Part shown: positions 1-50,017 of the stretch, piece by piece
How the letters are laid out: each line of letters begins with the position of its first letter
Numbering within the stretch: position 1 is the first letter of the stretch
DNA from: a virus
Reading direction: 5' to 3' (one strand)
Length of the DNA: 64,000 nt
Virus record (IMG/VR): IMGVR_UViG_3300032236_001457
Span: 1 to 64,000 of that record
Position numbers and translations under genes: made by a program
Notes under the pieces: model-generated
The model's input: the letters and a program-made list of their open reading frames with translations, nothing else
Database searches by the model: none
Told to the model about the DNA's origin: nothing

Positions 1-1638
1 AGCATCTTTATCTGCATCAGTTTTGCCAAACTTTCCAGCATCCATCTTTTTATCAATCTCACGCTTGGCATATCCTGGAACAACTTTGCGTAGAGTCTGT
101 GGTAAGCCTTCCGCCACACCTTGTTTTGATTTCAAGTAGGCTATGATTTTTTCAAGATTTTTAATTTTGACATCGTGTGCTCCATTGGCATTGAATTTTT
201 TATATTTGGCCAATTCTCTCTCGTAGTTTTTAATATTGGCAACGGTTCGGTCATCGCCTTCCGCCACACCTTGCTTTTTCTTTACAATTTCAAACTTGTG
301 CCCAAATTTTGTATGTAAAGGATGATCTAAGAATTTCTGTAGTTCTTCTTTAGCCCTTTGCCAAGAATCAAAACTGCCTGCGGCAAAGTCTTTTTCGCCA
401 TCGGGCTTAGTTCTAATAATGACATATTTTTCACCTAATTCCGGTCTATTCATGCCAGACCATGGACCTTTGATAACTTCACCTTCCGCCATACCTTGCT
501 CGTGTATGGTGTTAGGTTTGGGATTTGATAAGTTTTCAATAAATTGTAAAATTGCGTTATATTGTTGTGCGTATATTCTTGGCAGATCACTAGCCGCAGA
601 TTCTGGATCATTGTAAGCGTCACTGCCATCGTAAGCAGTATCAGTGATTGCTCTGGCTTCTTGGCTGCTTATTTTTTTACCAAGATTGTGAAGTCTAATA
701 ACTGCGTTATATAACCCTTCGGCCTTTGGGGCCCATTTTGCTACAACTTTTTGCCATTTGGGGCTTTGAGCAAACTCCTCGTCGTAATTACTGAGGCTAT
801 GCTCACCTATTAGGTCTTTGAATATGTTTAGTTCTAATAGTTCAAGAGCAGCATCTCCACTTGATATTAAGCCTTCCGCCACACCTTCATTCGACACACA
901 GTTGTTTACTCTAATGCCACCTTTGATCTTAGTGCCTTCTTTATGCTTGCCTTTCCAGCACTTGGCATCTAGGCGTTGCTTGACTTCCATCATGTTATTG
1001 CCGTGTGTTCGACACATACCACAATCTGGACAAGTCATTTCCATTTCCACACTTTCATTGTGCTTACGCTTACCGGCACAGTGAGCCCGCTGGCTAAATC
1101 CCTTTGGATGGCTACAGTTGATACTGTTCTTGTATTTTTGACTCCACCCTTCTCCCATCATTTCGTGTTGTAGGCTCTGTAGCACACTGTTGAGATAATC
1201 TGCTGCTTTAGTAATCTTGCTCTGTTGCCAAGCGTCTAGACCTTCCTCTTCACTCTTGGTCTTGATCATTGAGTGTAGTTGTTTGGCATTTTGGAAAATG
1301 CTGTGTAGTTCGCTGCCAGCCATGTTGATCTCATGATCCTGATTTTCAGCAAAGTCTTTATTCTTGTGTTTCTCGCCGCGAACCTGTTTGCTCTGTTGTT
1401 TGCGATCGGTATGCCGACCGCTACCTTTGGCTACTTTCTGAGCAGCGTGAGCAACGGGGCTACGAGGAGTAAGTTTTTGGTTAGCATCCTGGACTAGAAG
1501 ATTATCTCTGCGTTGAACCCCGCCTATTGGTTTAGATACAGAAGCAACACTTCCTGCGCTGGTTCCGCCCCCGCTGGCACTTTCTAAAACATATCTAGTT
1601 GTATCACCGTTGTTGATTTTTTTAAATTCTTTATTCAT
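1..1638 (-). CDS. Modular polyprotein-like phage protein with QGVAEG repeats (3'-truncated by window edge; not in ORF track)
   Basis: Manual translation from ATG at 1638, which overlaps the stop of 1635..1994 (ATGA): MNKEFKKINNGDTTRYVLESASGGGTSAGSV... The frame stays open to base 1 and contains four (Q/E)G(V/M)AEG linkers. Confidence 0.85.
   Translation of the reverse strand, partial: MNKEFKKINNGDTTRYVLESASGGGTSAGSVASVSKPIGGVQRRDNLLVQDANQKLTPRSPVAHAAQKVAKGSGRHTDRKQQSKQVRGEKHKNKDFAENQDHEINMAGSELHSIFQNAKQLHSMIKTKSEEEGLDAWQQSKITKAADYLNSVLQSLQHEMMGEGWSQKYKNSINCSHPKGFSQRAHCAGKRKHNESVEMEMTCPDCGMCRTHGNNMMEVKQRLDAKCWKGKHKEGTKIKGGIRVNNCVSNEGVAEGLISSGDAALELLELNIFKDLIGEHSLSNYDEEFAQSPKWQKVVAKWAPKAEGLYNAVIRLHNLGKKISSQEARAITDTAYDGSDAYNDPESAASDLPRIYAQQYNAILQFIENLSNPKPNTIHEQGMAEGEVIKGPWSGMNRPELGEKYVIIRTKPDGEKDFAAGSFDSWQRAKEELQKFLDHPLHTKFGHKFEIVKKKQGVAEGDDRTVANIKNYERELAKYKKFNANGAHDVKIKNLEKIIAYLKSKQGVAEGLPQTLRKVVPGYAKREIDKKMDAGKFGKTDADKDA
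107..888 (-). repeat. Four dispersed 17-bp direct repeats CAAGGTGTGGCGGAAGG, in frame within the CDS
   Basis: Plus-strand ccttccgccacaccttg at 107-123 and 257-273; one-mismatch copies at 482-498 and 872-888. Periods are 150, 225 and 390 bp, all multiples of 3. Confidence 0.95.
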
Positions 1639-1994
1639 GATTTCTTATTCCATTGTGATATGGGGCTCACTTTGTAAACATCTGACATTTCTTCACTGCG
1701 TTTGCTAGAGTGAGTTTTTCTGCTGTCATCACCAATTTGACCTGCGGCATATTTGATCATTTCCATTTCCGCTTCGGTATAAGGAGCCAATAGCGGATCT
1801 CCGGCGATATAACTGGTTGCCTTGGTAGGATACTCCGGAGCACCAGCAAGAGCAATACCCATTCTATAGTTTAGATACTGGTTGCCGGCATTCATGTTCT
1901 GATTGGAAAATGTTGTAACATTTTGAATGGCAGATTTGTGTTCGTCACGAATATTGTGAACACCACCTTCTGTAATAAATTCATTAGCTCTCAT
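1635..1994 (-). CDS. Hypothetical protein with capsid-targeting-like leader (MRANEFITE)
   Basis: ORF track; tightly coupled to both neighbours. Confidence 0.75.
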   Translation of the reverse strand: MRANEFITEGGVHNIRDEHKSAIQNVTTFSNQNMNAGNQYLNYRMGIALAGAPEYPTKATSYIAGDPLLAPYTEAEMEMIKYAAGQIGDDSRKTHSSKRSEEMSDVYKVSPISQWNKKS

Positions 1995-2860
1995 TATGCC
2001 ATCCTTTCTATGGTGTTTTTGACATCACCTACGGTAAAATAACTTTTACCCTTACTTTTTCCAAATGCTGGATTCTGTTGCCATACTTTGGCTTTATTTA
2101 ATCCGAACACTTCGCCGCCGTTTGCATCGCCTAACACAAAATCATCGGGTTTATCTACAGCAGCAGGCATAAATGTCATCATGTAAAGATCACCAAGATC
2201 CATGCCTGGTTGAACACCGTTCATTTTATAAAATTTATAAACATAATCTAATTGTTCTACAGCAGACATTTGTGCTAGGGCTTGTGAAGTAGTTCCTAGT
2301 GATTGAGCAGTTTTTGGCATAAATTGAATTAATCCAACTGCGCTACTGGTGCCGGCACCCTGACTCGGGCTCATACTACCGCCTGTTTCGAACTTCATGA
2401 TTCTTAATAGATTCTTCGGATCCACTCCTAGTTTCTGTCCTATTAAATTTAGTTTTTCATTAAACTCGGGGCTTTGTATAGCAGCAAGATCTTCGGCGCT
2501 AGGCCCTTGGCCTCTTAGAGCATTTCTAGCAACGTCTGCCTGTGTAGATTTGACAATGGTAATATTTCCTGCTTTTAGTGCAGAATTTAATGCAGCTATA
2601 GTAGCATCATCGGCACGACTACTAGCTGGTAATTTATTTGCTGCCTGGAATTTTTTTAATGCCGCAGCAGTTAACGGTCCTAGTATACCATCTACCCCGT
2701 CTTTCTTAGGTCCGAGATTTCCGAGATCTTCTGGTGTAGCCGCACCCAATGCTAATAAGGCTTTTTGGACATCGGCAACTTCTACTCCCTTATTACCGAG
2801 AGGAGATGCCAACGGGCCGGCTACATTGGCCTCATCTTCGAATAATTCTCTTATACGCAT
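1994..2860 (-). CDS. Peptidoglycan-binding domain plus lysozyme-like/lytic transglycosylase
   Basis: PG_binding_1-like VADVQKAL...DGILGPLTAAALKKFQ; SLT-like IMKFET...AVGLIQFMPKTA. Confidence 0.8.
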   Translation of the reverse strand: MRIRELFEDEANVAGPLASPLGNKGVEVADVQKALLALGAATPEDLGNLGPKKDGVDGILGPLTAAALKKFQAANKLPASSRADDATIAALNSALKAGNITIVKSTQADVARNALRGQGPSAEDLAAIQSPEFNEKLNLIGQKLGVDPKNLLRIMKFETGGSMSPSQGAGTSSAVGLIQFMPKTAQSLGTTSQALAQMSAVEQLDYVYKFYKMNGVQPGMDLGDLYMMTFMPAAVDKPDDFVLGDANGGEVFGLNKAKVWQQNPAFGKSKGKSYFTVGDVKNTIERMA

Positions 2861-3324
2861 TATGCTCTCTTAATACTAGAACGTAAGAACCATGCGTGTT
2901 TTTTATGAGCATCCATACGCTCGGCTAGAAAATTGCTAAGTCCATGTTCTCCTGCCGCTTCGGCAGCATCGTAATTTTTCTTCAGCACAATCTGAATTTT
3001 CTCACTGTCCAATAACAGTTCTTGAATCATTTGTTGTAGATTAGGGACTTGATTTTCGTCTTCGATACGAGTCAGCATGTTCAGTGTGTGATAACTGGTA
3101 GGCATATATCCGCCTAACTTACGAACATTTTCAGCAAATGGATCTACAGCTCCATATACTTCTTCGTAGATCTCTTCGAACAGTTTATGATATTCGTAGA
3201 AATCTGGCCCTTCAACGTTCCAATGCATCGAATGGACCTTAACGTAGAAACTAAATGTAGTAGCAAACCCTATACGAGTAAGTTGAATTAATTTATCCAT
3301 AGTATTATATTTATTATTAACCAA
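2860..3324 (-). CDS. dps: Dps family ferritin-like protein
   Basis: HWNVEGPDFYEYHKLFEEIY, D..AE ferroxidase residues, C-terminal HKKHAWFLRS. Confidence 0.9.
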   Translation of the reverse strand: MVNNKYNTMDKLIQLTRIGFATTFSFYVKVHSMHWNVEGPDFYEYHKLFEEIYEEVYGAVDPFAENVRKLGGYMPTSYHTLNMLTRIEDENQVPNLQQMIQELLLDSEKIQIVLKKNYDAAEAAGEHGLSNFLAERMDAHKKHAWFLRSSIKRA

Positions 3325-3568
3325 ACCAAAGAGTAAACCATTCTGCGGTGCCAGGCTTTATGCCCTGTTCTCTTTGTATTTGTCCTTTATTACTGCCAAC
3401 AACCGGTGTTGCCTGTCGCGCTCTATAGTCTGCCAGTCGTTCTGCTGCCCCTAATCCTCCTAAACTGGCTGCGATTTTCAGTTCATGTATGGGATCATCA
3501 GGAGCGAGATAGCAGTCATCCGCACTGTCCTGTGGAATATTACTGCTGTCTATTCTGTATTGCTTCAT
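3317..3568 (-). CDS. Hypothetical phage protein
   Basis: ORF track; overlaps both neighbours in the operon. Confidence 0.7.
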   Translation of the reverse strand: MKQYRIDSSNIPQDSADDCYLAPDDPIHELKIAASLGGLGAAERLADYRARQATPVVGSNKGQIQREQGIKPGTAEWFTLWFG

Positions 3569-6500
3569 TTACTATAATCCGATTTATCAGTGAGGCCATA
3601 ATGTTTTCAACCGACTCGCTAACTGGAATATGGTTAGACATAGTTTGGCCAATTTTCTTTTCCTCTGGTTCTTTTTTTGGAGGAGGCATAATACGATCTA
3701 GTTCGCGTTGAAACTGTTCTCTATCAGGAGCACTTTTTTTACGCTCCTTTTCTAATGCACGATTTAATCGCACCTGTGCTGGACTAGGTGGTTTCCAGAA
3801 TGATTCCTGTGTGTCCTGCTGTTTATGATGCGACTTTTCTTTAACTAAATCTCTAAGTTCGGCAGTGCTGAGCAAGTTTAATTCGGCCACTCCATATCCT
3901 GTAGCACGAGCAACGGCCCGTATCAAACGCTGGCGCAGTTGATGTTCTTCGTCCTCCACAACTGATCTTTTTTGATTAATCAGTGCTGTTAGGATTCGTT
4001 CTGCTACTGTCTCTGGTTGTTTGGCAACAATACCCATGCCTTTACGGGTTATATCCATTAGATGTTCGATCCAATCTACACCGAGTTTATTAACATCGAA
4101 TGCCTTAGACCACACAGCCAACGCCTGTTCTGGAGAATCATTTTTCAAACTGTTGCGTAGCATAGTGCCACTAACCCCTGTACCTCTAGGAGTCACTTCT
4201 AAACTTACTTTAACATGCTCATAACCTGGAAACTTATTCACCGCCTTCATTAGTGCCTGTGGCATGTTTAGATTTTTGCGATCTTCGCCGACCATAATAA
4301 CAATGTTGTCATAGCGTGGCGGTTTGCCTGGCAACGGATTGATCAATTCGTGTTTGATCTTTTGTATTAGTGATCCACCTTCCTGTGTCACGGTGCTGAT
4401 ATTTTTAGCATACTGGGGATATAGCTTATGCCATGTTTCGACCTTAACGCTGGGTGGAATAGGATCGTCTTTGCCTTCTGCATTGCCAATGAACAAGTAA
4501 GGATCACCGTGCAGTTCTCGTGCCTTATCGACAGTGTAGTTCCATAGTTCCTGGTGTCCGCGATGACCGATAAAACTGCCAATAGCAACCACTGCGGTTT
4601 TGTTAGCGTTATCCCTACCGCGATCAGTGCGGGCTGCGGCTCTAGCAGCATTTTTAGTAGCGATAAGATCTTTTTGTTTTTGACTGGTAACTTTGATAGG
4701 ACCTAGTCTGCTGTTGATAACAATGCCTTCGTATTCTGTGCCTAGTTTATCTTTGCCTACAATGTTAGGATCTTCGTCGATGGCTTTTTCTAACGCAATT
4801 TGCACAGGCTTTAATTTTTCTTCAATCTGTTGGCGTAGATCCGCACTGGCACGATCACGCTTGCCTGCTGTGCCGCTGACAATGTCTTTGAGTTCATCAA
4901 TATTGTCTAATACATTAACAATTTCTGTAACATCTAGACCTTGCTTTTGAACCAGTCTATTGCTCATAAACATGACATTGTCGCTTTGTCCTAGTTCTGC
5001 TATCTGCTGAACAGCAGCATCACCATCGGGTATTTCTTCTCCAGTGCCGCCCTCTACGATGCGGAATGGAACCAATACCAGATCAATACCTTCGGGGATT
5101 TGATCATATTCAATACCTACAAACTTTAATCCACCCGATTCTGTTTTGGTGGCAAATGGTAGGAATAACACTTCGCAGGTAACCTGCCTATCTACTAAAA
5201 AGTCTGGCCCTAACGCACTATCCACCATTTTGATAGCAGTCATCATTTCGTTGAATAGTTTGTCAAAGTTGGCGGCACGACCTAACACTTCAGGATCGGT
5301 GGTTCCTTTTTGTTTGTGATAATCTAAGAATCCTGCTTTGTATTTGGGCTCAGTGCGACTGGTGCCCATAAACGGTTTGCCCTCGGCGTCCTTACCGAAG
5401 CGTCCACCGAATCCGTCGATCTTGACATTTAATGGAATATTTTGTAAAACAAATCTGCCACCCGAGTCCTGTAGTTCATCTACTAGGTCTAAAAAGTCTG
5501 CTGGTTTTAGATCACGCAGATGAGGCATGCCTTTGCGTAGTTGTGCCTTTACTGCTGGTTGTGGTTTATCTTCTTCTGCTTCTGCTAGACCCTGTGATGC
5601 CTTGGCTTTTTTCAATGCTGCTCTAGGTTGTTTTTCTTCAGGATGTTCTTTTTTGTATGCTTCAACTTCGTAATAATCATCTTCGTAAGATTTGGCCTGT
5701 GCTATGGCCTGTGCTCGCATACTGCCCATGCCCAATTTTTCCAACATGACATCGATAGCAGCAAATTTAGTTTGAGCATCTCTTACAGGATCATCTTTGG
5801 TAATCATTTGACCACCGATTTCAAAACAGATGTCTAGGAAATCTTGCACGATGCCAGGCTTTTGTTCAGGTTTAATATATTTGTTGATTAGATCCAGTGT
5901 GCCTACAAAACTCTGCTGTAGTTGGCTGTCGTTGCCTTGGGGTTTGCGACCAAAGACCATTTCAAATTGTTCAGCAAGACTTTGAACATAAGTTCTATCT
6001 TTAGGATCAACAGGAGTCACAATAGGAATGCCATCTCGACTGCTTTCACCAGTTTCTGGGTCGGTATAAGGCACATACTTTCTGCTCATACCTCCTCCCT
6101 GTTTGCTGGCCACAGCGAATGACAACATACTGACTTCGGTCGGTTCGGGACTGACCACCATTGCTCGTGCCTTGCCGCGTCCTTCCAATTTGGCTATATA
6201 AACTTGTTGTGTGCTAGCGGCCGCTGCCAATGCTCTGTAGAGATACTTGTGGAATACTCCTTTGATACCGGCAGTGATGTCATTCCAATCGCTGCTGTGG
6301 CTGAACGCAAACCACTCGTCTGGCGTGCCAGTTTCTTCACCGTATCCACCAAACTCAAAATCTATTTGTATTTTGAAAGGCGGATCTTCAAATTGAAAAA
6401 GTGCGTTAAATTGTGCAGAGCCTTTGCTAAACCCTAAACATTTGGTATCACCAATTTGTTTTCCGGTCATTGCAGTTAGGAATTCTTCTACTTCGGGCTC

Positions 6501-7178
6501 TAATTTAGCATCAACCTGTGTATCAATATCGCCTACCTTGGGTTTATGCTTGACAAACTCGTCATCACTAATACCGGAGGTATTAAAAAAGTGTAGGCTA
6601 CTACCGCTTAGAAATTCGCGACTTTGTAATAGATTTGCTGACCATAATGGCTTTTTATATTTGGCTTGAAATACGGCACTAATATCGTGTAGTAACTTGT
6701 TTAGTAGTCCTACCATGTATGTGCGATTATGAACCTTGAGATTAATTTCCTGTGCTTGATGTGGTTGAGTAGGATCTTCGGGATTAGGTAGTTCTAAATT
6801 ACCACCTTCCATTAATTTGTATTTGTCGCGTTTAATATCGTCGTTATAGTGATCATACAATCGATCACACAGTTCTTCACGCATTTCCAATGGGAATAGT
6901 TTTCCTAACTTGCCAGTTAGTTTATTTTTATGATAGAATTCTTTACAGCCCTTTTCTACCATAGGCATGAATTCTTTGACCAAACGACTTTTATTTTCTT
7001 TTTTGTTTTGTTGTTGACGTTGTATTTTCTTTGCTAGCGGATGAAAATATTCTTTATGTAGACGATCGTGCTCTAGTATGTATTGAAACAGTTCATTGGC
7101 TATTTCTTGATCATCATGATCTCGATCAGTTGGTGATTTAATATCTAGGCTTTTGCCAAAAAATTCAGTTAAAAACAT
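3540..7178 (-). CDS. Multidomain protein: Pol-beta-like nucleotidyltransferase, ATP-dependent (RNA) ligase-like domain and HIGH-class cytidylyl/adenylyltransferase
   Basis: GSS...GDIDTQVD...QIDFE; VKIDG...CEVLF...EGIVI...IKV; GSFIGHRGH...VGEDR...SGT. Confidence 0.75.
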   Translation of the reverse strand: MFLTEFFGKSLDIKSPTDRDHDDQEIANELFQYILEHDRLHKEYFHPLAKKIQRQQQNKKENKSRLVKEFMPMVEKGCKEFYHKNKLTGKLGKLFPLEMREELCDRLYDHYNDDIKRDKYKLMEGGNLELPNPEDPTQPHQAQEINLKVHNRTYMVGLLNKLLHDISAVFQAKYKKPLWSANLLQSREFLSGSSLHFFNTSGISDDEFVKHKPKVGDIDTQVDAKLEPEVEEFLTAMTGKQIGDTKCLGFSKGSAQFNALFQFEDPPFKIQIDFEFGGYGEETGTPDEWFAFSHSSDWNDITAGIKGVFHKYLYRALAAAASTQQVYIAKLEGRGKARAMVVSPEPTEVSMLSFAVASKQGGGMSRKYVPYTDPETGESSRDGIPIVTPVDPKDRTYVQSLAEQFEMVFGRKPQGNDSQLQQSFVGTLDLINKYIKPEQKPGIVQDFLDICFEIGGQMITKDDPVRDAQTKFAAIDVMLEKLGMGSMRAQAIAQAKSYEDDYYEVEAYKKEHPEEKQPRAALKKAKASQGLAEAEEDKPQPAVKAQLRKGMPHLRDLKPADFLDLVDELQDSGGRFVLQNIPLNVKIDGFGGRFGKDAEGKPFMGTSRTEPKYKAGFLDYHKQKGTTDPEVLGRAANFDKLFNEMMTAIKMVDSALGPDFLVDRQVTCEVLFLPFATKTESGGLKFVGIEYDQIPEGIDLVLVPFRIVEGGTGEEIPDGDAAVQQIAELGQSDNVMFMSNRLVQKQGLDVTEIVNVLDNIDELKDIVSGTAGKRDRASADLRQQIEEKLKPVQIALEKAIDEDPNIVGKDKLGTEYEGIVINSRLGPIKVTSQKQKDLIATKNAARAAARTDRGRDNANKTAVVAIGSFIGHRGHQELWNYTVDKARELHGDPYLFIGNAEGKDDPIPPSVKVETWHKLYPQYAKNISTVTQEGGSLIQKIKHELINPLPGKPPRYDNIVIMVGEDRKNLNMPQALMKAVNKFPGYEHVKVSLEVTPRGTGVSGTMLRNSLKNDSPEQALAVWSKAFDVNKLGVDWIEHLMDITRKGMGIVAKQPETVAERILTALINQKRSVVEDEEHQLRQRLIRAVARATGYGVAELNLLSTAELRDLVKEKSHHKQQDTQESFWKPPSPAQVRLNRALEKERKKSAPDREQFQRELDRIMPPPKKEPEEKKIGQTMSNHIPVSESVENIMASLINRIIVNEAIQNRQQ

Positions 7179-7187
7179 AATTATTCC

Positions 7188-7607
7188 TTACCAAGCGCGA
7201 CACGACCAGTATCTAGCCTTAGTTCTAGGTCCGGGATTTTCACAATGATGGCGAGCTCTGAAACTTTTACGATGTCCGGGCAGATGTTTTTTAATGCTGA
7301 GTTTTTTATCACCAAAATTTACCTTTTTAACATTGCCTGTGCTGGGATCTTTTACATAGACCTTGCTTTTTTTAACATCGCCTTTCATTGGTTTGCCTAG
7401 AGGAACGGTGCGTCCATGGTATTTGGCTTCTTCTAAGGGAATATATGCTAGTGCTGTGGCATCTATAGCTAGGATAGGACCGTCACTTTTTAGGCCAATT
7501 ACGGTGGTTTCTAGAACAAAATCACCAAGTTCTAGTTCAAACACATCACCTTCTTGGATGGTTTCTTCAACGAAATCAAGTCCATCGAAAAGATCAACGA
7601 TACGCAT
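7188..7607 (-). CDS. Conserved hypothetical phage protein with basic C-terminal domain (KKVNFGD...RKSFRARHHC...YWSC)
   Basis: ORF track; preceded by GGAG RBS and ATAAATA. Confidence 0.75.
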   Translation of the reverse strand: MRIVDLFDGLDFVEETIQEGDVFELELGDFVLETTVIGLKSDGPILAIDATALAYIPLEEAKYHGRTVPLGKPMKGDVKKSKVYVKDPSTGNVKKVNFGDKKLSIKKHLPGHRKSFRARHHCENPGPRTKARYWSCRAW

Positions 7608-8051: not shown

Positions 8052-8743
8052 AAGATTTCCTGATCGGCAACCTTATTTATGCTATATCTAGGAACAAACT
8101 CTTCTACTCTGCGGATCTTCCCACCCGCTGCCATAGTAATCATCATGACCATGTTGCGATCGCGGGCATAAAAATAACAGGCACTGGGCCAAAATCCTCG
8201 TTTACCGGAAAAGTTCTTTCGTGTTGCATTAGGAATCCCGATACAGTTCTCGTCATACTTTTCTGCCCATTCAAGCATATTGGATGCAGTATCGGTATCC
8301 ATGTCCTTGAACACTACTCTGAACTTATACCTGTGTTTAGGAAGATGATTACATAACACGATCTTGCTATCGCCCTCCATGATCTCAAGTTCTGCGGTAT
8401 CAGCTGGCTCTGTCACACTGATAACATAATCTGCAAGTTCTGTGGCCATTTCCTGATACAGCACCGGATCCTTGATAAAAATACTAATTTGATCATGCTC
8501 TATTCGTAATTTTATACCAAGTGCTATATAGTGCTCTAATTTGATTAGATAATCCAGCAACAATAACGGATCGATATTCTTTCTTTTTGACCAATGCCGA
8601 TTGATGTTAGGAGTGATACACCATTTTTTTAGGTATTCAATTCCGCGAGCCCTTAACAGCGTGGCTCCTACCATACCAGTTGAGATCTTGTAGGGCCACT
8701 CTCCGTAGAACAGTTTATTGGTCTTCAGTTTCTTCGGTATCAT
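8027..8743 (-). CDS. Hypothetical protein
   Basis: ORF track, 238 aa, in operon after clpA. Confidence 0.7.
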   Translation of the reverse strand: MIPKKLKTNKLFYGEWPYKISTGMVGATLLRARGIEYLKKWCITPNINRHWSKRKNIDPLLLLDYLIKLEHYIALGIKLRIEHDQISIFIKDPVLYQEMATELADYVISVTEPADTAELEIMEGDSKIVLCNHLPKHRYKFRVVFKDMDTDTASNMLEWAEKYDENCIGIPNATRKNFSGKRGFWPSACYFYARDRNMVMMITMAAGGKIRRVEEFVPRYSINKVADQEILCQHLAKV

Positions 8744-10988
8744 TTTTAACCTTGCTGACAGGAAGGATATCTACAATATTGAGTTTGAGTTCGGTTCCAT
8801 CGACACTGAGTTCTACAATACCGCCATTAGCTAGACTGCCAAATAGGATTTCACGGCTTAATGGTTTCTTGATCTGCTCATCGATAACACGCTGCAAAGG
8901 TCTGGCACCCATTTTGCTATCAAACCCTCGATCGACCAAATATGCCAGTGCTAGAGCATTTGGTTTGACATGAATATTTTTATCTTTAACTAAACTATTG
9001 AGATCATCGATAAACTTCTTAACAATCTTAGTCATTGTATTCTTGTCCAACTTACCAAAGCGGATAACCCCGTCTAGCCGATTGCGGAATTCTGGAGCAA
9101 AGAATTTATTAACAGCATCTTTTGGATCGCCGTCTCGTTCCAGACTACCAAATCCTACGCCGTTCTTTTCAGCATCAGCAGCACCCAAGTTGCTGGTCAT
9201 AATGATGATAGCACTACGAGCATCTGCTTTCTTACCATTGCTACCGGTAATAAATCCATTGTCCATGATCTGTAGTAGAAGTGTTAGCACATCTGGGTGT
9301 GCTTTTTCTACTTCGTCTAGCAACAACACACAATGTGGAGTTTCCTGCAGACTAGTAATTAGTTGTCCAGCATTTTCTTCGAAGCCTACATATCCTGGAG
9401 GACTACCGATGAACTTGGCCACGCTGTGTTTTTCTTGGAACTCACTCATGTCAAACCTAATCAGTTTGATACCCATGTTAAGTGCCAGTTGTTTAGCAGC
9501 CTCGGTCTTGCCTACGCCAGTTGGTCCTACGAACAAGAAACTACCTACTGGTTTGTTCAGACTCTTCAATCCGGCTTGAGCAATAAACACCTTATCAAGT
9601 AGACTTTCAATAGCCTTTTCCTGCCCATACACTTTGGATTTCATGTTCTTTTCCAGTGATTGTGTATTGACATTTTCCTTGTTGTTGATCTGGTCGAAGC
9701 TGAGGTTAGCAAGTTTTGCTACTTCAAAAACGATTTCCTCGTGATCCACAATGCCGCCTTCTTGATCTTTCACTTTAAATCTAGCACAGGCACAGTCAAT
9801 CAGATCAATGGCCTTGTCTGGTAGCTTCTTATCAGTTAGATATTTCACGCTGTATTTGACACTGTCAATTACGGCCTGGTTAGTAATTTTAACCTTGTGA
9901 TGACGCTCGTAGTATTTTTTAATACCTTTAACAATCTTAATTGCAGTATCCTCATCGGGCTCATCGACAACTACACGCTGGAAACGACGCATAAGAGCAC
10001 GATCTTTTTCAAAGTGTTTGCGGTATTCTTCCCAAGTAGTGCTGGCAATAACTTTAATAGTGCCTTTGCCCAGTGCGGATTTCAACATATTGGCCATGTC
10101 GTTGCTGCTGCCATTAGCAGCACCGGCACCATTCATCATGTGTGCTTCGTCAATAAAAAGAATAGATTTGCCTTTCTTTTCAATAGCACCAATAACTGCC
10201 TTTAATCGTTCTTCAAAATCACCACGATATTTGCTGCCTGCTAGCAGTGCGCTGATGTCTAGACTATAGACATTGTGCTCTTGAATAAATTTAGGAACAT
10301 TACCTTCAAAGATTTTACGAGCCAATCCTTCGGCAATAGCAGTTTTACCGACACCGGGGTCGCCGATCAGAATAGCGTTGGCTTTGGTACGACGAGCCAA
10401 CACCAATTCAATTTCTTCAATCTCCTTGTCTCGCCCAATAACAGGATCAATTTTTTTAGACTTGGCTTTAGCAGTTAGATTAGTGCAGAACTGAACAATC
10501 ATGCGTTCTAGCTGTGCTGTTTTAGAATCAGTTGCTGCTGCTTCTTCATCTTCGCGAACTAGCTCTTTCTTAACAAAGTTAATGAATTTGTCTTTGTCAA
10601 TATTGGCCTTTCTAATGAAAAAGCTAGCATGACTTTTCTTTTCAGAAAACATGCTGAGGAAACAATCAACTGGTTCGATGATTTGCCTGCCACTGAACAA
10701 GACCTGTGTAAAAGCACGATTCAACATGCGATCTACAGTGTTGGTCTTTTTGGGTTTTTCTTGTTCAGGATTTACGATTTCCTGTAGATTGTTTTTGATA
10801 TAACTGTCTAGATCTTCTTTGAGAACATTTACATCTGCTCCAAATGCGGTTAGTATTTCAGCAAAGGAATTATTATTGACCATGCTGTATAAAAAGTGTT
10901 CCAATGTAATATATTCATGGTCGTATACACTGGCTATTTTAACAGCATTTTCAAAAATGCTCTCGAGATCTTTATTTGGTTCTAACAT
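8715..10988 (-). CDS. clpA: ATP-dependent Clp protease ATP-binding subunit ClpA
   Basis: Clp N-domain, two Walker A motifs (GDPGVGKT, GPTGVGKT), KYRGDFEERLK, ClpP-docking VGFG loop, GARPLQR. Confidence 0.95.
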   Translation of the reverse strand: MLEPNKDLESIFENAVKIASVYDHEYITLEHFLYSMVNNNSFAEILTAFGADVNVLKEDLDSYIKNNLQEIVNPEQEKPKKTNTVDRMLNRAFTQVLFSGRQIIEPVDCFLSMFSEKKSHASFFIRKANIDKDKFINFVKKELVREDEEAAATDSKTAQLERMIVQFCTNLTAKAKSKKIDPVIGRDKEIEEIELVLARRTKANAILIGDPGVGKTAIAEGLARKIFEGNVPKFIQEHNVYSLDISALLAGSKYRGDFEERLKAVIGAIEKKGKSILFIDEAHMMNGAGAANGSSNDMANMLKSALGKGTIKVIASTTWEEYRKHFEKDRALMRRFQRVVVDEPDEDTAIKIVKGIKKYYERHHKVKITNQAVIDSVKYSVKYLTDKKLPDKAIDLIDCACARFKVKDQEGGIVDHEEIVFEVAKLANLSFDQINNKENVNTQSLEKNMKSKVYGQEKAIESLLDKVFIAQAGLKSLNKPVGSFLFVGPTGVGKTEAAKQLALNMGIKLIRFDMSEFQEKHSVAKFIGSPPGYVGFEENAGQLITSLQETPHCVLLLDEVEKAHPDVLTLLLQIMDNGFITGSNGKKADARSAIIIMTSNLGAADAEKNGVGFGSLERDGDPKDAVNKFFAPEFRNRLDGVIRFGKLDKNTMTKIVKKFIDDLNSLVKDKNIHVKPNALALAYLVDRGFDSKMGARPLQRVIDEQIKKPLSREILFGSLANGGIVELSVDGTELKLNIVDILPVSKVKNDTEETEDQ

Positions 10989-15718: not shown

Positions 15719-16477
15719 TTACCACCTTGTTTTTTCTATCACCATACCACGATCACCGTTGCGAATTAAGAATTTGTTCCCAATTTTATCGATATCGTAT
15801 TTGCCCAAATATTTAGTTAGAAACAGACATTGACTCTGGCTGCTCTCGTCTAAACTTAGTCGTCCCGGGACAGTGTCTTTAACTGCTTCGTAATCGCCTA
15901 TGGCAATGAATTTCGCCTCTATAGGACCAGCATATGGTCTGCTAAAAACTAATGTATTATCTGCTTCCAGTGTTACTTCTGTGCTGCCCTGATCAAAGAA
16001 ATCTTTCACATCAACGTTTTTAATTTCTAATATCTTAGATTCGTATTCTTCCGCAGTCATTGGAATATGCTCTAGTATACTTTCTTCTGTAAATTCTACA
16101 CTCTTAGAAGCCTTTTGGTATCTAAAACGCCAATCGTAACTGTCGCATAGTTGTCCAATACCGTTTAATAGTTCTCTCATTTGACCGGGTAATTCTTGTG
16201 TTCTAGGGATTTCTACAAATACCTGATATTGACCGTCGTGCTCTTCACCTGAGCTCATGTCTGCATCGAGAATAAATGAATATCCTTTTTCAATAAATTC
16301 CATTAAGTCCATAGCAGGGGATTTTTCTTTGACTCGAAAACCAAGAACTACAACATCTTGATCCTCACCCATCTTGCTCTTATATTGATCTACAGTGAAT
16401 AGGTCGCTGACCTGTGAATAGAGATCCCCACTGCGGAGACCTTCTGTTAAATTAGATTTCTTCTGGTTCTTCGGCAT
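15719..16477 (-). CDS. Hypothetical phage protein
   Basis: ORF track, 252 aa. Confidence 0.75.
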   Translation of the reverse strand: MPKNQKKSNLTEGLRSGDLYSQVSDLFTVDQYKSKMGEDQDVVVLGFRVKEKSPAMDLMEFIEKGYSFILDADMSSGEEHDGQYQVFVEIPRTQELPGQMRELLNGIGQLCDSYDWRFRYQKASKSVEFTEESILEHIPMTAEEYESKILEIKNVDVKDFFDQGSTEVTLEADNTLVFSRPYAGPIEAKFIAIGDYEAVKDTVPGRLSLDESSQSQCLFLTKYLGKYDIDKIGNKFLIRNGDRGMVIEKTRW

Positions 16478-16991
16478 CTGAAGGTGCCTCCTGTGCTACT
16501 TCGTCTGTTGCTATAGCGTTAGCGCTGTTATAGCGCATGAATTCGGCCATTTGATTATTTTCTTGATTCTCTTTGCCCACATAAATGTCTTGCATTAGTT
16601 TTTTGGGCATTTCAATGGTTACTGTCCATATAGGGTGAGCATCAATTTTTCCCTTTTTAGTTCCTGGTCTGAAGTCGCTTGGATCTTTAATCTTACGAGG
16701 AACTAGAATATGTTCTTTAGCGTAGGTTACACGGCACCCATAATCGTTCAATCTTCTGCCACCTTTGGGGTCGGGCATCTCATCGCGGTCCCACATAAAT
16801 GTGCATTTAACTGTATAACGACCTACCTCAGGACCGCGGCAGAGTTCTCCCTCCTCCCAATTTTTAAAAACATAAACATCTAGTTCGTCAATAACACGTT
16901 CAAAGTCCTTAAGGACCTGAAAAGCGTCATTGTTTTCTCCTAGAGTTTGTAAATTTTTAACTACATCAAGTATATCGTGGTGCATAGGCAT
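16452..16991 (-). CDS. Hypothetical phage protein
   Basis: ORF track; TATAAATA immediately upstream. Confidence 0.75.
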   Translation of the reverse strand: MPMHHDILDVVKNLQTLGENNDAFQVLKDFERVIDELDVYVFKNWEEGELCRGPEVGRYTVKCTFMWDRDEMPDPKGGRRLNDYGCRVTYAKEHILVPRKIKDPSDFRPGTKKGKIDAHPIWTVTIEMPKKLMQDIYVGKENQENNQMAEFMRYNSANAIATDEVAQEAPSDAEEPEEI

Positions 16992-17004: not shown

Positions 17005-17012
17005 TATTTATA
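17005..17012 (-). promoter_or_regulatory. T4-type late promoter TATAAATA
   Basis: Exact T4 late consensus 14 nt upstream of 16991, heading the operon that runs into the lysis cassette. Confidence 0.7.
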
Positions 17013-35849: not shown

Positions 35850-35857
35850 TATTTATA
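35850..35857 (-). promoter_or_regulatory. T4-type late promoter TATAAATA
   Basis: Exact consensus directly upstream of sod. Confidence 0.65.
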
Positions 35858-42675: not shown

Positions 42676-43263
42676 TTATCGGTTAGCTACAATCTTATCA
42701 CACAGACCGTATGCCAGTGCTGCTTCAGCTGACATAAATGTATCTCGGTCCATATCGCGTTCAAAATCCTCAAAGGTTTTACCTGCTGTATTGTGTTTAA
42801 CATACAGTTCGGTTAGTCGCTTTTTCCAGAACATGATCTCGTTATAGGAGATTTCGATATCACTGGCCATGCCACGAGCACCTCCCGACGGCTGATGTAT
42901 CATATGGCGACTATTGGGCAGCATGAATCTTTTGCCTGCTGTTCCGGCTTGTGCTAGAAAACTACCCATACTACAGGCCTGGCCCATAACATAAGTTGCT
43001 ACATCGGGTTTAACGAACTGCATAACATCATAGATACCCATACCGGCGGTAATTACACCACCGGGGCTATTGATATAAAAATGAATGTCCTTTTCGCTGT
43101 CAGAACTTTCTAAGTGTAGAATCTGTGCGATAACCAAGTTGGCACTGTGATCATCTACAGGTCCATTTAGAAACACGATTCTTTCCGATAATAATCTAGA
43201 AAAAATATCAAACGCTCTCTCTCCGCTTCCTGTTTTTTCAATAACAATAGGAACTAAACTCAT
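42676..43263 (-). CDS. clpP: ATP-dependent Clp protease proteolytic subunit
   Basis: LVPIVIE, DIFSRLL, YINSPGG, ACSMG (Ser), MIHQP (His), RD.FMSA. Confidence 0.95.
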
Positions 43264-45982: not shown

Positions 45983-46713
45983 TTTTTGTTGTTTATAAAA
46001 ATTCCTCTCCAAGAGAGATCTAAAAACTTTGATAAATTAACATTGGATTCTTTTTCTGTGTGAAAAGGTTCTACATTTTCCTCAGAAAAATAATTCTTTA
46101 AATCTCGTAAATTGTCGGTTTTAGGATGAGCCCACAAGTGTTTTTTAAAATCTACAGTTTCTTCTGTTATGCCGTCAGGTAGTTCAACATCTACAAGAAA
46201 TTCGTCGGTTGTATTTTGAGATGGATCCACAGGCACAATTGGCCAAGATTTCATCTTTGCATCAAACACACAAAATTTACTATTGAATTTTAATTTTTTT
46301 CGTATATTTTTAATAATTGTTTTGGTATCTATGGTATGTTGCAATGCCCAGACGGCAATACCTACAGTGAAATAATTATCAGGAAGCCGAGAGAATTCCG
46401 CATTATTGATGGCTGTGAAATTTGAATGATTAACATATTTGGTTGCATATTCCAACATTTTAGATTGAAAGTCTACACCTATTACTTTACAATTAAATTC
46501 TTCAATAATAGGTTTTGCTAACCTTCCTATGCCACACCCCCAATCTAGCACAACACTGTCTTCGTTAAAGAGATTGGTCTCGCGAAAATATTTCATTGTC
46601 CATTTGGTTTCTGTTTCCCATTGATCGGGAATAGAATCATCCGTTAGTATTATTTTTTTAGCATGTTCAATATCAGTTGGCTCAAAAAAATCGTAATTGT
46701 ATTTTACTAACAT
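45979..46713 (-). CDS. Class I SAM-dependent methyltransferase
   Basis: VLDWGCGIGR, GVD, WALQH motifs. Confidence 0.85.
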   Translation of the reverse strand: MLVKYNYDFFEPTDIEHAKKIILTDDSIPDQWETETKWTMKYFRETNLFNEDSVVLDWGCGIGRLAKPIIEEFNCKVIGVDFQSKMLEYATKYVNHSNFTAINNAEFSRLPDNYFTVGIAVWALQHTIDTKTIIKNIRKKLKFNSKFCVFDAKMKSWPIVPVDPSQNTTDEFLVDVELPDGITEETVDFKKHLWAHPKTDNLRDLKNYFSEENVEPFHTEKESNVNLSKFLDLSWRGIFINNKK

Positions 46714-46958
46714 AAAACTCCAAAATGTTTAGATATGCGACTCATAGCCTGTTTCAATGCTCTGTTATGTGCCCGGTATAATCCTTCTATGGATTCATCA
46801 TGAGGATCAGGTTCAATCAGGTCATCAACGCAGTTAATACATTCCTTTACTAATAATTCGGCAAACTTTTCCAAACTGAACTGACGAGTATGTAAACCAG
46901 TTTGCCCGGGTATATGTATCATTGCTTCTTCTGCCAATCTTTCAAATTGTTCGTTCAT
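46707..46958 (-). CDS. MNERI/HFGV-family micro-protein
   Basis: MNEQFERLAEEA...KFAELLVKECI...KHFGV. Confidence 0.75.
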   Translation of the reverse strand: MNEQFERLAEEAMIHIPGQTGLHTRQFSLEKFAELLVKECINCVDDLIEPDPHDESIEGLYRAHNRALKQAMSRISKHFGVLC

Positions 46959-47296
46959 CGGCAGACCTCTATAGTAGCATCGGGTTCATTCCAGCAGGCA
47001 TTACGGTATTCATAAACAAACCGCCAAAGATTATCGTAATTACCCCAACCATTCTCTGGATTATGTTGTTTGAAACGATCGGGCTCACTCAGTAGTATGT
47101 TCCAACCTTCGTCCAGCAATTCCGCAATATCTTTAGCATAAACCAATTCATGTTCATCGGGTCGCCATAACACATCGTATAGTGTTAGTCCATTAGACAA
47201 TTTAACTTCGGAAGCCATCTTACACAAGTTATGAGTAATGTTGTTGTCATAGACTCTTACAGGTTTGGTCACATTTAAGGATACGGTTAAACTCAT
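46955..47296 (-). CDS. Hypothetical phage protein
   Basis: NITHNL..MA, NPENGWG.Y motifs; coupled to both neighbours. Confidence 0.7.
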   Translation of the reverse strand: MSLTVSLNVTKPVRVYDNNITHNLCKMASEVKLSNGLTLYDVLWRPDEHELVYAKDIAELLDEGWNILLSEPDRFKQHNPENGWGNYDNLWRFVYEYRNACWNEPDATIEVCR

Positions 47297-47400
47297 TCTT
47301 CAATTCCTACTGATTTACATTTGTGGAATGGCATAATTCGACCAAGCCATCCAATCAGTTCACCGCAATTTTGGCAACAGTATGATGGGTATTTCTTCAT
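47293..47400 (-). CDS. 35-aa Cys-rich peptide ending GIEE (not in ORF track)
   Basis: MKKYPSYCCQNCGELIGWLGRIMPFHKCKSVGIEE; ATGA overlaps at both ends. Confidence 0.6.
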   Translation of the reverse strand: MKKYPSYCCQNCGELIGWLGRIMPFHKCKSVGIEE

Positions 47401-47585
47401 TCTTCAACACCAAAATGTTCTTTGAGATAATCTACATTGTCGCCGCGGTGAAACGCAACATCGATACATTCTCTCACCATCAACTCGGCGAACTTTTTAC
47501 ACTCGGGCATATCCCAATGACCAAATCCAAACATATCCGCTTTATATCCAGCCTGTTCGGCAAGTTGTTCAATTCGTTCGTTCAT
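47397..47585 (-). CDS. MNERI/HFGV-family micro-protein
   Basis: MNERIEQLAEQAG...KFAELMVRECI...EHFGVEE. Confidence 0.8.
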   Translation of the reverse strand: MNERIEQLAEQAGYKADMFGFGHWDMPECKKFAELMVRECIDVAFHRGDNVDYLKEHFGVEE

Positions 47586-47893
47586 TCGTCAACTCCATAC
47601 TTCTTGTTTAGTTTTTTAATCTCTGCTCGGAGATTTCGTTTCTCATATTCAGCCCAACCAAGTTGCTCCTGCATATCCCGCATTTGTTGAGCAAAGTCAC
47701 GATCAGCAGGTGAGAGTTCTTCTTCTGCTCGTAGAATAAACTTACCATTTTCCCAATCAAATCCATTCTGAGCACTTTTAACAGCGACCATAGGAATCGC
47801 ACCAACTGTAGAGTAGGGCAGTTTAATGGCAATCATTACTTCATTCTCATCGCGGACATGTTCCAGTATGCGTTTGAGTTCGCTAACTTTCAT
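47582..47893 (-). CDS. Hypothetical protein ending in a YGVDE tail
   Basis: ORF track; ATGA-coupled at both ends. Confidence 0.7.
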   Translation of the reverse strand: MKVSELKRILEHVRDENEVMIAIKLPYSTVGAIPMVAVKSAQNGFDWENGKFILRAEEELSPADRDFAQQMRDMQEQLGWAEYEKRNLRAEIKKLNKKYGVDE

Positions 47894-48105
47894 TCTTCAA
47901 CTCCAAAATGTTCTAGAATCTGTAGGCTACAATGTTGTCTGCTTCTAACATCATCACCGGGGCTGGGACGACTTTCACATATTAGAGCACATTCCCGCAC
48001 AATCAACTCGGCGAACTTCTCAGCAAACTTTCCATAAGTTGAAAACTGGTCGTTGACAATGACCATTCCAGCCTGTTCGGCAAGTTCTTTAATTCGTTCG
48101 TTCAT
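47890..48105 (-). CDS. MNERI/HFGV-family micro-protein
   Basis: MNERIKELAEQAG...KFAELIVREC...EHFGVEE. Confidence 0.8.
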   Translation of the reverse strand: MNERIKELAEQAGMVIVNDQFSTYGKFAEKFAELIVRECALICESRPSPGDDVRSRQHCSLQILEHFGVEE

Positions 48106-48215
48106 GGTTTACCCCATATTGCTTCTAATACTGTATTAAGAGATACATTCAATATCCTTGAGATTACTTCTATTTGGAATCCTTCTTTATACATCTCTCT
48201 GATTTCATCCTTCAT
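48102..48215 (-). CDS. 37-aa HTH-like peptide (not in ORF track)
   Basis: MKDEIREMYKEGFQIEVISRILNVSLNTVLEAIWGKP; ATGA overlaps at both ends. Confidence 0.65.
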   Translation of the reverse strand: MKDEIREMYKEGFQIEVISRILNVSLNTVLEAIWGKP

Positions 48216-48433
48216 TCTTCAACTCCGAAATGTTCTAGTTTCTCGTTTAAGAGATTCCAACTGACGCTACCAACTATGAACATATCACGGCAAATCTCAA
48301 TCTGTTCTTTCGCAATCAACTCGGCGAACTTTTCTAATTCATCGTAGCCTACAGTAGTGGCAGGTTTACTGCCAAACCAAAAACACTCTTCTGCTCTAGC
48401 CTGCTCTAAAAGTTGTTCAATTCGTTCGTTCAT
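48212..48433 (-). CDS. MNERI/HFGV-family micro-protein
   Basis: MNERIEQLLEQA...KFAELIAKE...EHFGVEE. Confidence 0.8.
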   Translation of the reverse strand: MNERIEQLLEQARAEECFWFGSKPATTVGYDELEKFAELIAKEQIEICRDMFIVGSVSWNLLNEKLEHFGVEE

Positions 48434-48786
48434 TTCATATTCCTTCCAATTTCAGCCGCGGCCCTGACGATGGCACGGCGGGTGGCGGCGTAGGGGTCGG
48501 TGCCGTACATGATTTTTCCAGTGCCTATGTAGCCTCCGTCAAACCAGCCGACCACGTAGTCGTCGTAATGCTTTATGTCGATCTTCAACTTCACCGCCAT
48601 CCTGAAGGCATCTCCATCGTCGGTCAGGGGTAGCCAAGCAAACGGTCGCCGGCTAGGCGTTGATGGGTCGCTGACATAAAGACAATTGTCCATCATGTCG
48701 TCCCAGCCAGAGATTCCATACCCCGCCGCCTTGGCAGCGTACTGGAGCAATTCATGGTCCAATTCTTGTATTCGTTCATTCATCAT
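48430..48786 (-). CDS. Chimeric hypothetical protein: MNERIQEL head plus GC-rich body
   Basis: ORF track; the body is visibly more GC-rich than its flanks. Confidence 0.75.
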   Translation of the reverse strand: MMNERIQELDHELLQYAAKAAGYGISGWDDMMDNCLYVSDPSTPSRRPFAWLPLTDDGDAFRMAVKLKIDIKHYDDYVVGWFDGGYIGTGKIMYGTDPYAATRRAIVRAAAEIGRNMK

Positions 48787-49049
48787 TTTCTTTCCCTAGT
48801 TTTTAACAACATCACTTGTTCTTCGGTGGCAAATTCACTAATAAAGACACTGCTGTATTCTTTGCCTAACACTTTGTTTAGTAGGCCTGGCCCTAGTCCG
48901 ATAAATTCATATCTATAGTTATCCAGTTCGACTATCATGTTTTTAGTATCAACACGAAGATTTTGATTGGTAGTAAGGGTATCTTTACATTGATTAAATT
49001 TATGTTTGGCTTGTTCGTGCGTATCACAAACAAATAGTGTGCTATTCAT
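48783..49049 (-). CDS. Hypothetical protein
   Basis: ORF track; ATGA-coupled. Confidence 0.65.
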   Translation of the reverse strand: MNSTLFVCDTHEQAKHKFNQCKDTLTTNQNLRVDTKNMIVELDNYRYEFIGLGPGLLNKVLGKEYSSVFISEFATEEQVMLLKTRERK

Positions 49050-49261
49050 CCGTCAACTCCGAAATGTTCTTTAATCGCATCAATCATCTTCTCGCAAGCA
49101 CGGTTATATCCAATAACAAAGTGTGTATCAGTTTTCGGTTCTCCTCTAACCTCTGAGGCAATGTCTAAAAATTCCCGAACAATTAACTGGGCGAACTTGA
49201 AATCATCATAGTGTGCTGAGCCATATACTTGTTCAGCAAGTTCTTTAATTCGTTCATTCAT
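49046..49261 (-). CDS. MNERI/HFGV-family micro-protein
   Basis: MNERIKELAEQ...KFAQLIVRE...EHFGVDG; start reassigned to 49261. Confidence 0.8.
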   Translation of the reverse strand: MNERIKELAEQVYGSAHYDDFKFAQLIVREFLDIASEVRGEPKTDTHFVIGYNRACEKMIDAIKEHFGVDG

Positions 49262-49484
49262 TGTTTGCCACACTATATCGTTCTGCCAGTCGGCGAATAG
49301 TGTCAATCCTTGGGCTTCCTAATGAATCATCATTGGTCAATTCGCTTAGAACATCGTAGACAATACACTTGTAGAATTTGGTCAGTTCTTCACGATTGAA
49401 AGTAAAAGATGCTGGAGGTTTGGGAAAGTCCCATTCTTTTTGACCGGCACAATCAATAGCAAGTTGTTCAAATAGTTCGTTCAC
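49254..49484 (-). CDS. Divergent MNERI-family micro-protein
   Basis: MNELFEQLA...ELTKF; first gene after a strong promoter. Confidence 0.65.
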   Translation of the reverse strand: MNELFEQLAIDCAGQKEWDFPKPPASFTFNREELTKFYKCIVYDVLSELTNDDSLGSPRIDTIRRLAERYSVANNE

Positions 49485-49516
49485 GATTCAATTCCGTTTT
49501 TACACTGTATGAATAC

Positions 49517-49545
49517 ATTATACAGACATTGCAGGGAATCGTCAA
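49517..49545 (-). promoter_or_regulatory. Strong sigma70-type early promoter TTGACG-N17-TATAAT
   Basis: Near-perfect consensus heading the MNERI array. Confidence 0.85.
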
Positions 49546-49568
49546 TCCGTTGTGGTTATACAACAATT

Positions 49569-49814
49569 TTAGGACCACCTCAACATAAACCACATAAATT
49601 TCTTTTCATCAACAATGCGGTAGTCTTCAATACTGTGGAGTTTGTGATTCAAATCAAGTTCTATGCCGTATTCAACTAGTATACGATGTATTTGAGCGTC
49701 AAGTCTTGCATTGCCCGTGACAAGTCGTGCTTCTGGTGTAAGAGTGACTGGAACATGACGCCCAAATTCACTGTATTCTCGACTTAATATTGTTTGTAAT
49801 TCGCAAGGCTTCAT
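49569..49814 (-). CDS. LRWS-tail micro-protein
   Basis: Ends FMWFMLRWS; start reassigned to the ATGA overlap. Confidence 0.7.
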   Translation of the reverse strand: MKPCELQTILSREYSEFGRHVPVTLTPEARLVTGNARLDAQIHRILVEYGIELDLNHKLHSIEDYRIVDEKKFMWFMLRWS

Positions 49815-50017
49815 GACCACCTCAATATGAACCAAGCATAATCACGATCATTGTCAAAATGAAACAGCATCTCTTGAGCCATAATACGAAATCCCCATCT
49901 AAACTGGTCGCCTACACTGTATAGGTCAGGAGCCATTTGTCCAAATTGTTGATCGCACCAATCCAGCATTTTACTCACTACATACGGATTCATACACTGA
50001 AATTTAGCTTCAATCAC
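49811..50017 (-). CDS. LRWS-tail micro-protein
   Basis: WC..QFG...F.F....D.AWFILRWS; GTGA overlap start. Confidence 0.7.
   Translation of the reverse strand: MIEAKFQCMNPYVVSKMLDWCDQQFGQMAPDLYSVGDQFRWGFRIMAQEMLFHFDNDRDYAWFILRWS

Follow-up and report, generated by a model that had tools for sequence, protein, structure and literature searches.

Why would a viral gene repeat one short stretch of DNA, silent positions included, between protein segments that have nothing in common? The question is raised by P0001, an open reading frame (ORF) on the minus strand (1638 to 1) of the window analysed here, i.e., positions 1 to 64,000 of the IMG/VR virus record IMGVR_UViG_3300032236_001457. P0001 is the 5' part of a gene for a multi-module polyprotein, and its repeat is a linker that encodes the peptide GVAEG or a close variant. 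In the following, we show that the silent positions of this linker are fixed across the viruses that carry it and that protein modules are exchanged with breakpoints at the linker, and we weigh what might cause both.

A codon-locked linker within one reading frame

The 17-mer CAAGGTGTGGCGGAAGG occurs four times within the 64-kb window, always on the minus strand. Counted from the start of the gene, the copies lie at 872–888 (GAAGGTGTGGCGGAAGG; peptide NEGVAEG), 482–498 (CAAGGTATGGCGGAAGG; EQGMAEG), 257–273 and 107–123 (both exact; KQGVAEG). The former two carry one mismatch each, i.e., CAA to GAA (Gln to Glu) at 872–888 and GTG to ATG (Val to Met) at 482–498. Both are non-synonymous, and the wobble bases are the same in 4/4 copies. 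Even when up to 3 mismatches are allowed, the 64 kb hold no further match. The chance expectation is 0.08 copies, and none of 100 shuffles reached four. All copies share the frame of P0001 (546 amino acids, aa), and their spacings of 150, 225 and 390 nt equal 50, 75 and 130 codons. This rescan agrees with a preliminary description of the locus, which had listed copies starting at 107, 257, 482 and 872 with at most one mismatch, identical synonymous positions and in-frame periods of 50, 75 and 130 codons. It had also called the separating modules unrelated, and BLASTP among the five segments M0 to M4 indeed finds no mutual similarity (best E 0.3).

Base 1 of the window is also base 1 of a 101,834-bp IMG/VR contig (CheckV completeness 27%). 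Since the ORF runs off this contig end, the C-terminus of P0001 is missing and the true extent of the gene goes beyond 1–1638. Within the available part, a leader (1582–1638) is followed by the remainder of the composite segment M0 (889–1581), which combines basic low-complexity, helical and Cys-rich (WSQKYK...NNCVSNE) parts. Each M0 part is found singly in other proteins, including proteins of the T4-like cyanophage S-SM2. The linker copies then delimit M1 (499–871; about 126 aa, an all-helical independent domain), M2 (274–481; about 71 aa), M3 (124–256; 46 aa) and M4 (1–106; the first 36 of about 51 aa, GLPQTLRKVVPGYAKREIDKK...), all on the minus strand.

The conserved element spans about 20 nt, (A/G)A(G/A)CAAGGTGTGGCGGAAGG(C/T), beyond which the information content is at background. 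Its codons are not those the genome prefers: GTG makes up 15% of the Val codons and GCG 6.4% of the Ala codons of the contig, and 4/4 linkers use both. A scan of IMG/VR with the linker 16-mer, in line with a check proposed by the preliminary description, yielded at least 119 other viral contigs with a match to the 16- or 17-mer. Among the matches listed, many contigs hold 2–5 linker copies inside about 1–2 kb, 165/172 matches are in the GVAEG frame according to a longest-open-frame test, and 7/172 show a longer open frame elsewhere, none of them clearly antisense or intergenic. A control 16-mer made of common codons, AAGGTGTTGCTGAAGG, behaves differently among its listed matches: it marks single-copy sites in a few conserved gene families with hydrophobic context, in contrast to the multi-copy, multi-context pattern of the true motif.

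Next, we turn to three tests that are independent of this selection. Four related giant genomes (1.31 Mb) contain 12 matches to the degenerate pattern GGNGTNGCNGARGG; 11 of these share an identical 14-mer and one is off by a single base. The reversed pattern has 0 matches in the same four genomes. Within 33 loci picked by protein similarity to P0001 only, GVAE is encoded as GGTGTGGCGGAA in 110/129 tetrapeptides. That is, the codons at other GVAEG sites are not random; random codons were the outcome that the preliminary description had named as speaking against its reading.

For identical residues of homologous module pairs from different contigs, codon identity is 0.46–0.53 (at 30–60% aa identity) vs. 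0.87–0.91 in the flanking linkers. Similar values of 0.50 for modules and 0.83 for linkers are observed for the protein-selected loci. Wobble bases and replaceable non-wobble bases of the linker change about equally rarely, as found for 77 near-copies in unbiased loci. The linker is uniform across GC contents of about 30–50%, and decayed copies with 2–4 mismatches occur as well. The silent positions of the linker are thus fixed across its carriers, i.e., the linker is codon-locked.

Module exchange at the linker

Two related loci, L242 and L243, have the same gene order as the window, i.e., a ClpA-like gene, g238, g130, g139, g1212, g83, a Dps-like gene, an SLT lysin, g119 and the polyprotein. 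The neighbour genes of their polyproteins show about 59–99% aa identity to those of the window. The polyproteins themselves match P0001 with 71–80% through M0 and diverge totally past the first linker. Furthermore, the domain that directly follows the first linker in L243 is preceded by two extra modules in L242. That is, the orthologues contain different modules, and the repeat marks the breakpoints, as the preliminary description had expected. Both loci also share a 50-aa segment that is absent from the window; it sits at the joint MMGE|G within M0 (1147–1161, minus strand) and has GAAGG at both borders.

The individual modules recur in other genes, many of which show the same flanking repeat, again in line with the preliminary description. 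M4 is 86–100% identical in 16 other contexts, and its nucleotide homology begins and ends within linkers in these 16 contexts. M3 has copies in two genes of contig L078 that are about 97% identical at the nucleotide level and have different flanks on either side. For M1 and M2, a search of 1.84 billion protein cluster representatives returned 106 proteins, most of which match M1 only or M2 only, and three of which cover both modules. M1 relatives include small stand-alone proteins with a leader ending in L-N-E. The M2 family is present in more than 25 other proteins with lengths of 82 to 1103 aa, many with GVAEG-type linkers on both sides. These M2 homologues stem solely from the search of the 1.84 billion representatives; tblastn found none in the loci compared here.

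We also evaluated where assembled Logan contigs from the source run and three other runs (three studies in total) depart from the window. These contigs cover M0 as well as the neighbour genes and leave the window sequence at 869/887, 484, 275/276 and 105/123, i.e., at the four linkers. At copy 1 it is contigs of other samples that diverge (869 and 887); copy 2 shows one loose contig end (484), copy 3 shows loose ends in three runs (275/276), and copy 4 shows loose ends at 105 and 123. Apparent joints that would make 124–256 a deletion variant were discarded, since they rest on 20–23 matching letters that are the linker itself. In the source run, M4 has twice the depth of the rest, which is probably why the contig ends inside M4. 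Finally, among 174 linker ORFs, 32% of the internal ends of homology blocks lie within 8 aa of a linker, vs. 8.6% for random positions. Modules are thus exchanged with breakpoints at the linker.

Proposed cleavage, recombination and rival explanations

Next, we studied whether the linker also fits a head-protease site. In T4, the first ten residues of the capsid-targeting sequence (CTS), MKTYQEFIAE, are enough for packaging, and the protease gp21 removes them after the Glu, following the site rule L/I-x-E (PMC9026906; for CTS/gp21 processing, Mullaney and Black 1996 as cited therein). Respective genes, i.e., Peptidase_S77 (gp21) and Gp23, are encoded by 4/5 large linker-carrying contigs (260–400 kb), and the capsid protein of the carriers reads ...LLAE|SSAG or a close variant where T4 gp23 is matured. 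Most linker ORFs and most proteins found via M1 or M2 start with T4 CTS-like leaders such as MRATEFITEG, MKINEIISE and MNLFDMFES. The leader of P0001, MNKEFKKINNGDTTRYVLE, ends with V-L-E followed by SASGGG and is kept in orthologues as MNxEFKK...YxLES; by analogy to the T4 CTS (PMC9026906), it may serve as a capsid-targeting or propeptide segment.

The variation among the 77 near-copies is informative on this point. Base 2 of the Val codon never changes, nor do bases 1 and 2 of the Glu codon, and bases 1 and 2 of the Ala codon change almost never. At the peptide level, P3 is V, M or L (once I), P2 is A, S, E, K or T, and P1 is almost always E, while P1', P4 and P5 vary freely. This tolerance fits a putative protease site of the hydrophobic-x-Glu or L/I-x-E type.

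Linkers or linker-like peptides are also observed in unusual positions. In locus L094 (about 3606–4638, minus strand of the locus), the linker comes immediately after a fused CTS-like leader (MRATEFIIE-GVAEG-L...), and an ORF of locus L072 stops two residues past its linker (QGVAEGKK-stop). Both look like minimal docking ends. A CTS-led neighbour of P0001 with 1212 aa (3540–7178, minus strand) contains the linker-like peptide SQGLAEAEE, written in other codons with 6 mismatches to the 18-mer, which is either a decayed or an independent joint.

On balance, we lean towards a reading in which P0001 chains several internal head proteins into one polyprotein, and its linker serves as prohead-protease site as well as sole homology for in-frame cassette exchange. 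The leader of such a 'poly-IP' would bring the whole chain into the prohead core, where a T4-type prohead protease would cut after the Glu of each V-A-E in (K/E)-Q-G-V-A-E|G. The resulting separate small proteins would remain in the head for injection. General phage recombination between linker copies, be it within one genome or between co-infecting phages, would insert, delete or replace whole cassettes in frame, since the linker DNA is the only homology that unrelated cassettes have in common. Silent positions would stay fixed because only cassettes with intact linkers keep moving; cassettes with mutated linkers would stop moving and would be seen as the decayed copies. The fixed silent bases would thereby be explained without a special enzyme. 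Within this model, we infer that the protein is packaged and cleaved and that recombination is what maintains the codon lock. The preliminary description had likewise proposed that each repeat is both a protease site and a recombination point. Its recombination part is well supported, and the evidence for its protease part is circumstantial.

Several observations weigh against this reading. Two thirds of the homology-block ends lie away from recognisable linkers, and a homology of 17–20 nt is short for efficient general recombination. Some other nucleotide-level function could keep the codon lock. Moreover, modularity as such can do without the linker DNA, since related polyproteins of cyanophages connect similar modules by other x-E joints. 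Concerning the protease, the linker has Val at P3 instead of the Leu or Ile of the T4 rule, the 19-aa leader of P0001 (MNKEFKK...YVLE|S) exceeds the leaders of its neighbours in length and resembles T4 less, and neither gp21 nor gp23 is found in the contig of the window itself (102 kb, 27% complete). The presence of P0001 in virions and its cutting are inferred rather than observed.

The latter leaves room for the linker to be an uncleaved inter-domain spacer of one multi-domain chain, be it in virions or not, with the repeat acting as recombination joint only. The evidence for recombination is independent of cleavage, and phage polyvalent proteins can go unprocessed into the particle (PMC5512222). 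We nevertheless consider such a spacer unlikely: what stays invariant in the linker matches hydrophobic-x-Glu exactly, with P2 and P1' free to vary, the same joints directly follow CTS-like leaders, stand-alone homologues of M1 have a leader ending in L-N-E, and carrier genomes have gp21. A passive spacer needs no invariant Glu. An equally small probability is given to a stronger version of the exchange model, in which the linker is kept on purpose as an exchange site, comparable to integron attC sites or PeSL mini-circles but in frame, and excised cassette circles with one linker re-insert at any linker of any co-infecting phage. If this was true, a guild of giant freshwater phages would share a pool of injectable modules and selection would act on the linker DNA. 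An exotic variant would have ribosomes or polymerases skip cassettes between identical linkers, such that each gene yields several isoforms.

Alternatively, the motif could be a DNA or RNA signal that is unrelated to recombination homology, e.g., a ribosome-pausing or Shine-Dalgarno-like purine tract that keeps the folding of modules separate, a target of an RNase or of a nicking or homing endonuclease, or a protein-binding site, with module exchange as a by-product. The conservation of wobble bases independent of module divergence would suit such a signal, as would a motif that is purine- and GC-rich (AAGG...GGAAGG) in AT-rich genomes. What makes it distinctly improbable is that window positions 1–2000 have no Rfam match, that pairing-probability profiles of 80 linker contexts show no shared structure, that conservation drops to background beyond the roughly 20 nt, that no match among the 172 listed is clearly antisense or intergenic, and that the breakpoints fall inside the motif. 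In addition, wobble bases and replaceable bases are lost about equally fast in decayed copies, which is expected when homology, and not a structured signal, is lost. A dedicated site-specific system, i.e., an 'intragenic integron' that moves cassettes as excised circles, would account for the sharply defined site with its uniformity across GC contents and for the duplication of one cassette, its ends being clean, into two genes of the same genome; nearby PeSL repeats of T4-type phages are also known to recombine into cassette mini-circles (PMC2839356). We rate it slightly lower again, given that the linker lacks dyad symmetry or a hairpin and that insertions and deletions are also found at the minimal GAAGG joints, which better fits microhomology. 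No integrase-like gene is present among the scanned neighbours, a statement that does not extend to the whole genome, for which no recombinase search was made. By far the least probable are chimeric assemblies at the repeat or plain common descent of recently diverged gene copies. It is true that all sequences are metagenomic contigs and that the window contig ends in the repeated M4 with its doubled source-run depth. But mosaics are unlikely to be assembly chimeras because the repeat of 17–20 nt is below the usual assembly k-mers. Furthermore, contigs from independent studies show these mosaics as well, the flanking modules are mutually unrelated, and, with regard to common descent, linkers remain fixed even where the silent sites of homologous modules have reached saturation.

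Four known kinds of element were rejected as descriptions of the repeat. An integron-like array does not apply, as we find no palindromic site, no hairpin and no integrase among the scanned neighbours. The same holds for 2A/StopGo skipping (the linker peptide is (K/E)QGVAEG, and P0001 is without NPGP) as well as for a Chi-like site and Shine-Dalgarno-like internal initiation, the defining features of which are absent.

The reading as a polyprotein of internal head proteins can be related to several known systems. The T4 proteins IPI, IPII, IPIII and Alt, which have a CTS and are processed by gp21 (PMC9026906), are similar in their short N-terminal leader ending in hydrophobic-x-Glu. Further likenesses are the T4-type prohead protease and capsid protein in the carrier genomes, the small, fast-evolving basic or acidic cargo, and the leader-plus-module genes within the M1 family. 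In contrast to T4, many cargo modules are chained here in one ORF with fixed-codon hexapeptide junctions that have Val at P3, their packaging and cleavage being putative. For the PeSL cassettes of T4-type phages, a short DNA motif flanks unrelated ORFans, and recombination between motif copies leads to cassette insertion, deletion and replacement with mini-circles as possible vectors (PMC2839356, PMC4122927). The linker shows the same arrangement: unrelated cassettes lie between copies of a short conserved motif, at which homology ends. PeSL are, however, intergenic promoter-terminator units, whereas the GVAEG linker is translated, in frame and without consistent fold; it rearranges protein modules within a gene, and its peptide is a putative protease site at the same time.

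Exchanges at conserved motifs were reportedly also described by Tetart et al. in 1998 for the His boxes of T-even tail fibre genes. The glycine-rich motifs of the gp38 adhesin are comparable, as these conserved in-frame motifs lie between hypervariable segments and are the places to which exchanges map (PMC3157838). Such gp38 and His-box motifs belong to the structural core of one domain, with fixed positions within one gene family; the GVAEG linker joins unrelated domains across many gene families. Polyvalent proteins also combine many unrelated domains per chain and are predicted to be packaged and delivered with the DNA, possibly after processing (PMC5512222). P0001 differs by its putative head-protease processing at a repeated linker and by its lack of hallmark domains (MPTase, ART and so on), none of which were detected in it with Pfam. 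A codon-locked joint is no part of the polyvalent-protein concept.

A cultured counterpart is SSM2_109 of the T4-like cyanophage S-SM2 (L283, 4114–6240), a modular protein of 708 aa encoded between gp16 and gp17. It contains DUF192 and DUF6321 modules, the latter being common to relatives of P0001, together with the helical and Cys-rich modules known from M0. Its joints are varied x-E sites (MNE, VSE, VKE, IEE, LDE), and the 17-mer is absent. Since T4-like cyanophages use such assorted x-E joints without the 17-mer, the codon-locked linker looks like a specialisation of one freshwater lineage. SSM2_109 could be a tractable model to study the cleavage of such polyproteins.

Genome context and implications

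Regarding the phage itself, the best reading is an uncultured freshwater T4-type giant phage with an estimated genome of 300–400 kb, in which P0001 is the 5' part of a late gene. The window carries T4-type clamp loader and tail fibre genes. Cultured phages provide no megablast match to window positions 1–4000, and tblastn with P0001 against them gives partial module matches only, in T4-like cyanophages. P0001 and the polyproteins of L242 and L243 match no Pfam family, and DUF6321 and DUF192 are the sole Pfam families carried by relatives of P0001. PHROGs matches of P0001 are weak and all to families of unknown function. M1 is predicted to fold on its own (predicted local distance difference test, pLDDT, 89; predicted template-modelling score 0.81), and Foldseek found no match for this model at E ≤ 0.001 in PDB or BFVD. 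ESM Atlas suggests that M1 is a helical bundle and labels M2 as AP2/ERF-like; both are leads only, with scores below 0.8.

All picked ORFs from 16991 down to P0001 (1635–16991) are on the minus strand. The four genes just upstream of P0001 that have T4 CTS-like leaders encode a protein with leader MRANEFITEG (1635–1994), a PG_binding_1 and SLT transglycosylase protein with leader MRIRELFEDE (1994–2860), which may act as a murein hydrolase that is carried in the head or leaves it together with the DNA, the 1212-aa protein mentioned above (leader MFLTEFFGKS) and a protein with leader MRIVDLFDGL (7188–7607). Between them lies a Dps/ferritin-like gene (2860–3324; Pfam Ferritin, 4.9e-23), which adjoins linker polyproteins in most related loci with 36–99% identity. 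A ClpA/ClpB-type double AAA+ unfoldase is encoded at 8715–10988 (Clp_N, AAA, AAA_lid_9, AAA_2, ClpB_D2-small) and is kept within a few kb of the polyprotein in many related loci. The N-terminus of a 195-aa ORF at 42676–43263 (minus strand) looks ClpP-like.

The T4 late-promoter consensus TATAAATA is depleted in the window (2 seen vs. 5.9 expected). Both sites are on the minus strand: the one at 17005–17012 is 14 nt upstream of the gene 16452–16991 and, judged by its sequence, may act as promoter; the other at 35850–35857 is just upstream of a minus-strand gene.

Two further observations concern distant parts of the minus strand. A kinase-like protein of 198 aa (52098–52694) matches the PHROG of T7 gp0.7-type protein kinases/host transcription inhibitors (3.4e-15) and has the T4 CTS-like leader MRINELTGYK. 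At 46707–51342, at least 7 small paralogues of 62–118 aa share MNERI(K/E)(E/Q)LAEQ-like N-termini and appear to form a tandem family in which the head is conserved and the tails vary.

Our full-text literature searches returned no earlier description of the linker or of an internal head polyprotein; papers that mention GVAEG or QGVAE are unrelated. The known kinds to which the codon-locked in-frame linker relates are CTS/gp21 cargo on the one hand and motif-mediated modular shuffling on the other. A single short sequence would here face two constraints, namely one on the peptide as protease site and one on the DNA as recombination joint. It is also a rare clean case of synonymous-site selection that is open to test by recoding. 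With the 16-mer as query, hundreds of candidate injected modules can be retrieved from metagenomes, and these are probably anti-defence or host-takeover factors. The arrangement would also be a natural layout for multi-cargo packaging in T4-based delivery vectors. If the proposed reading is true, the phages would build, test and trade injected proteins in a plug-and-play manner that leaves frames and folds intact, which would account for how T4-type phages diversify their fast-evolving arsenals of internal proteins.

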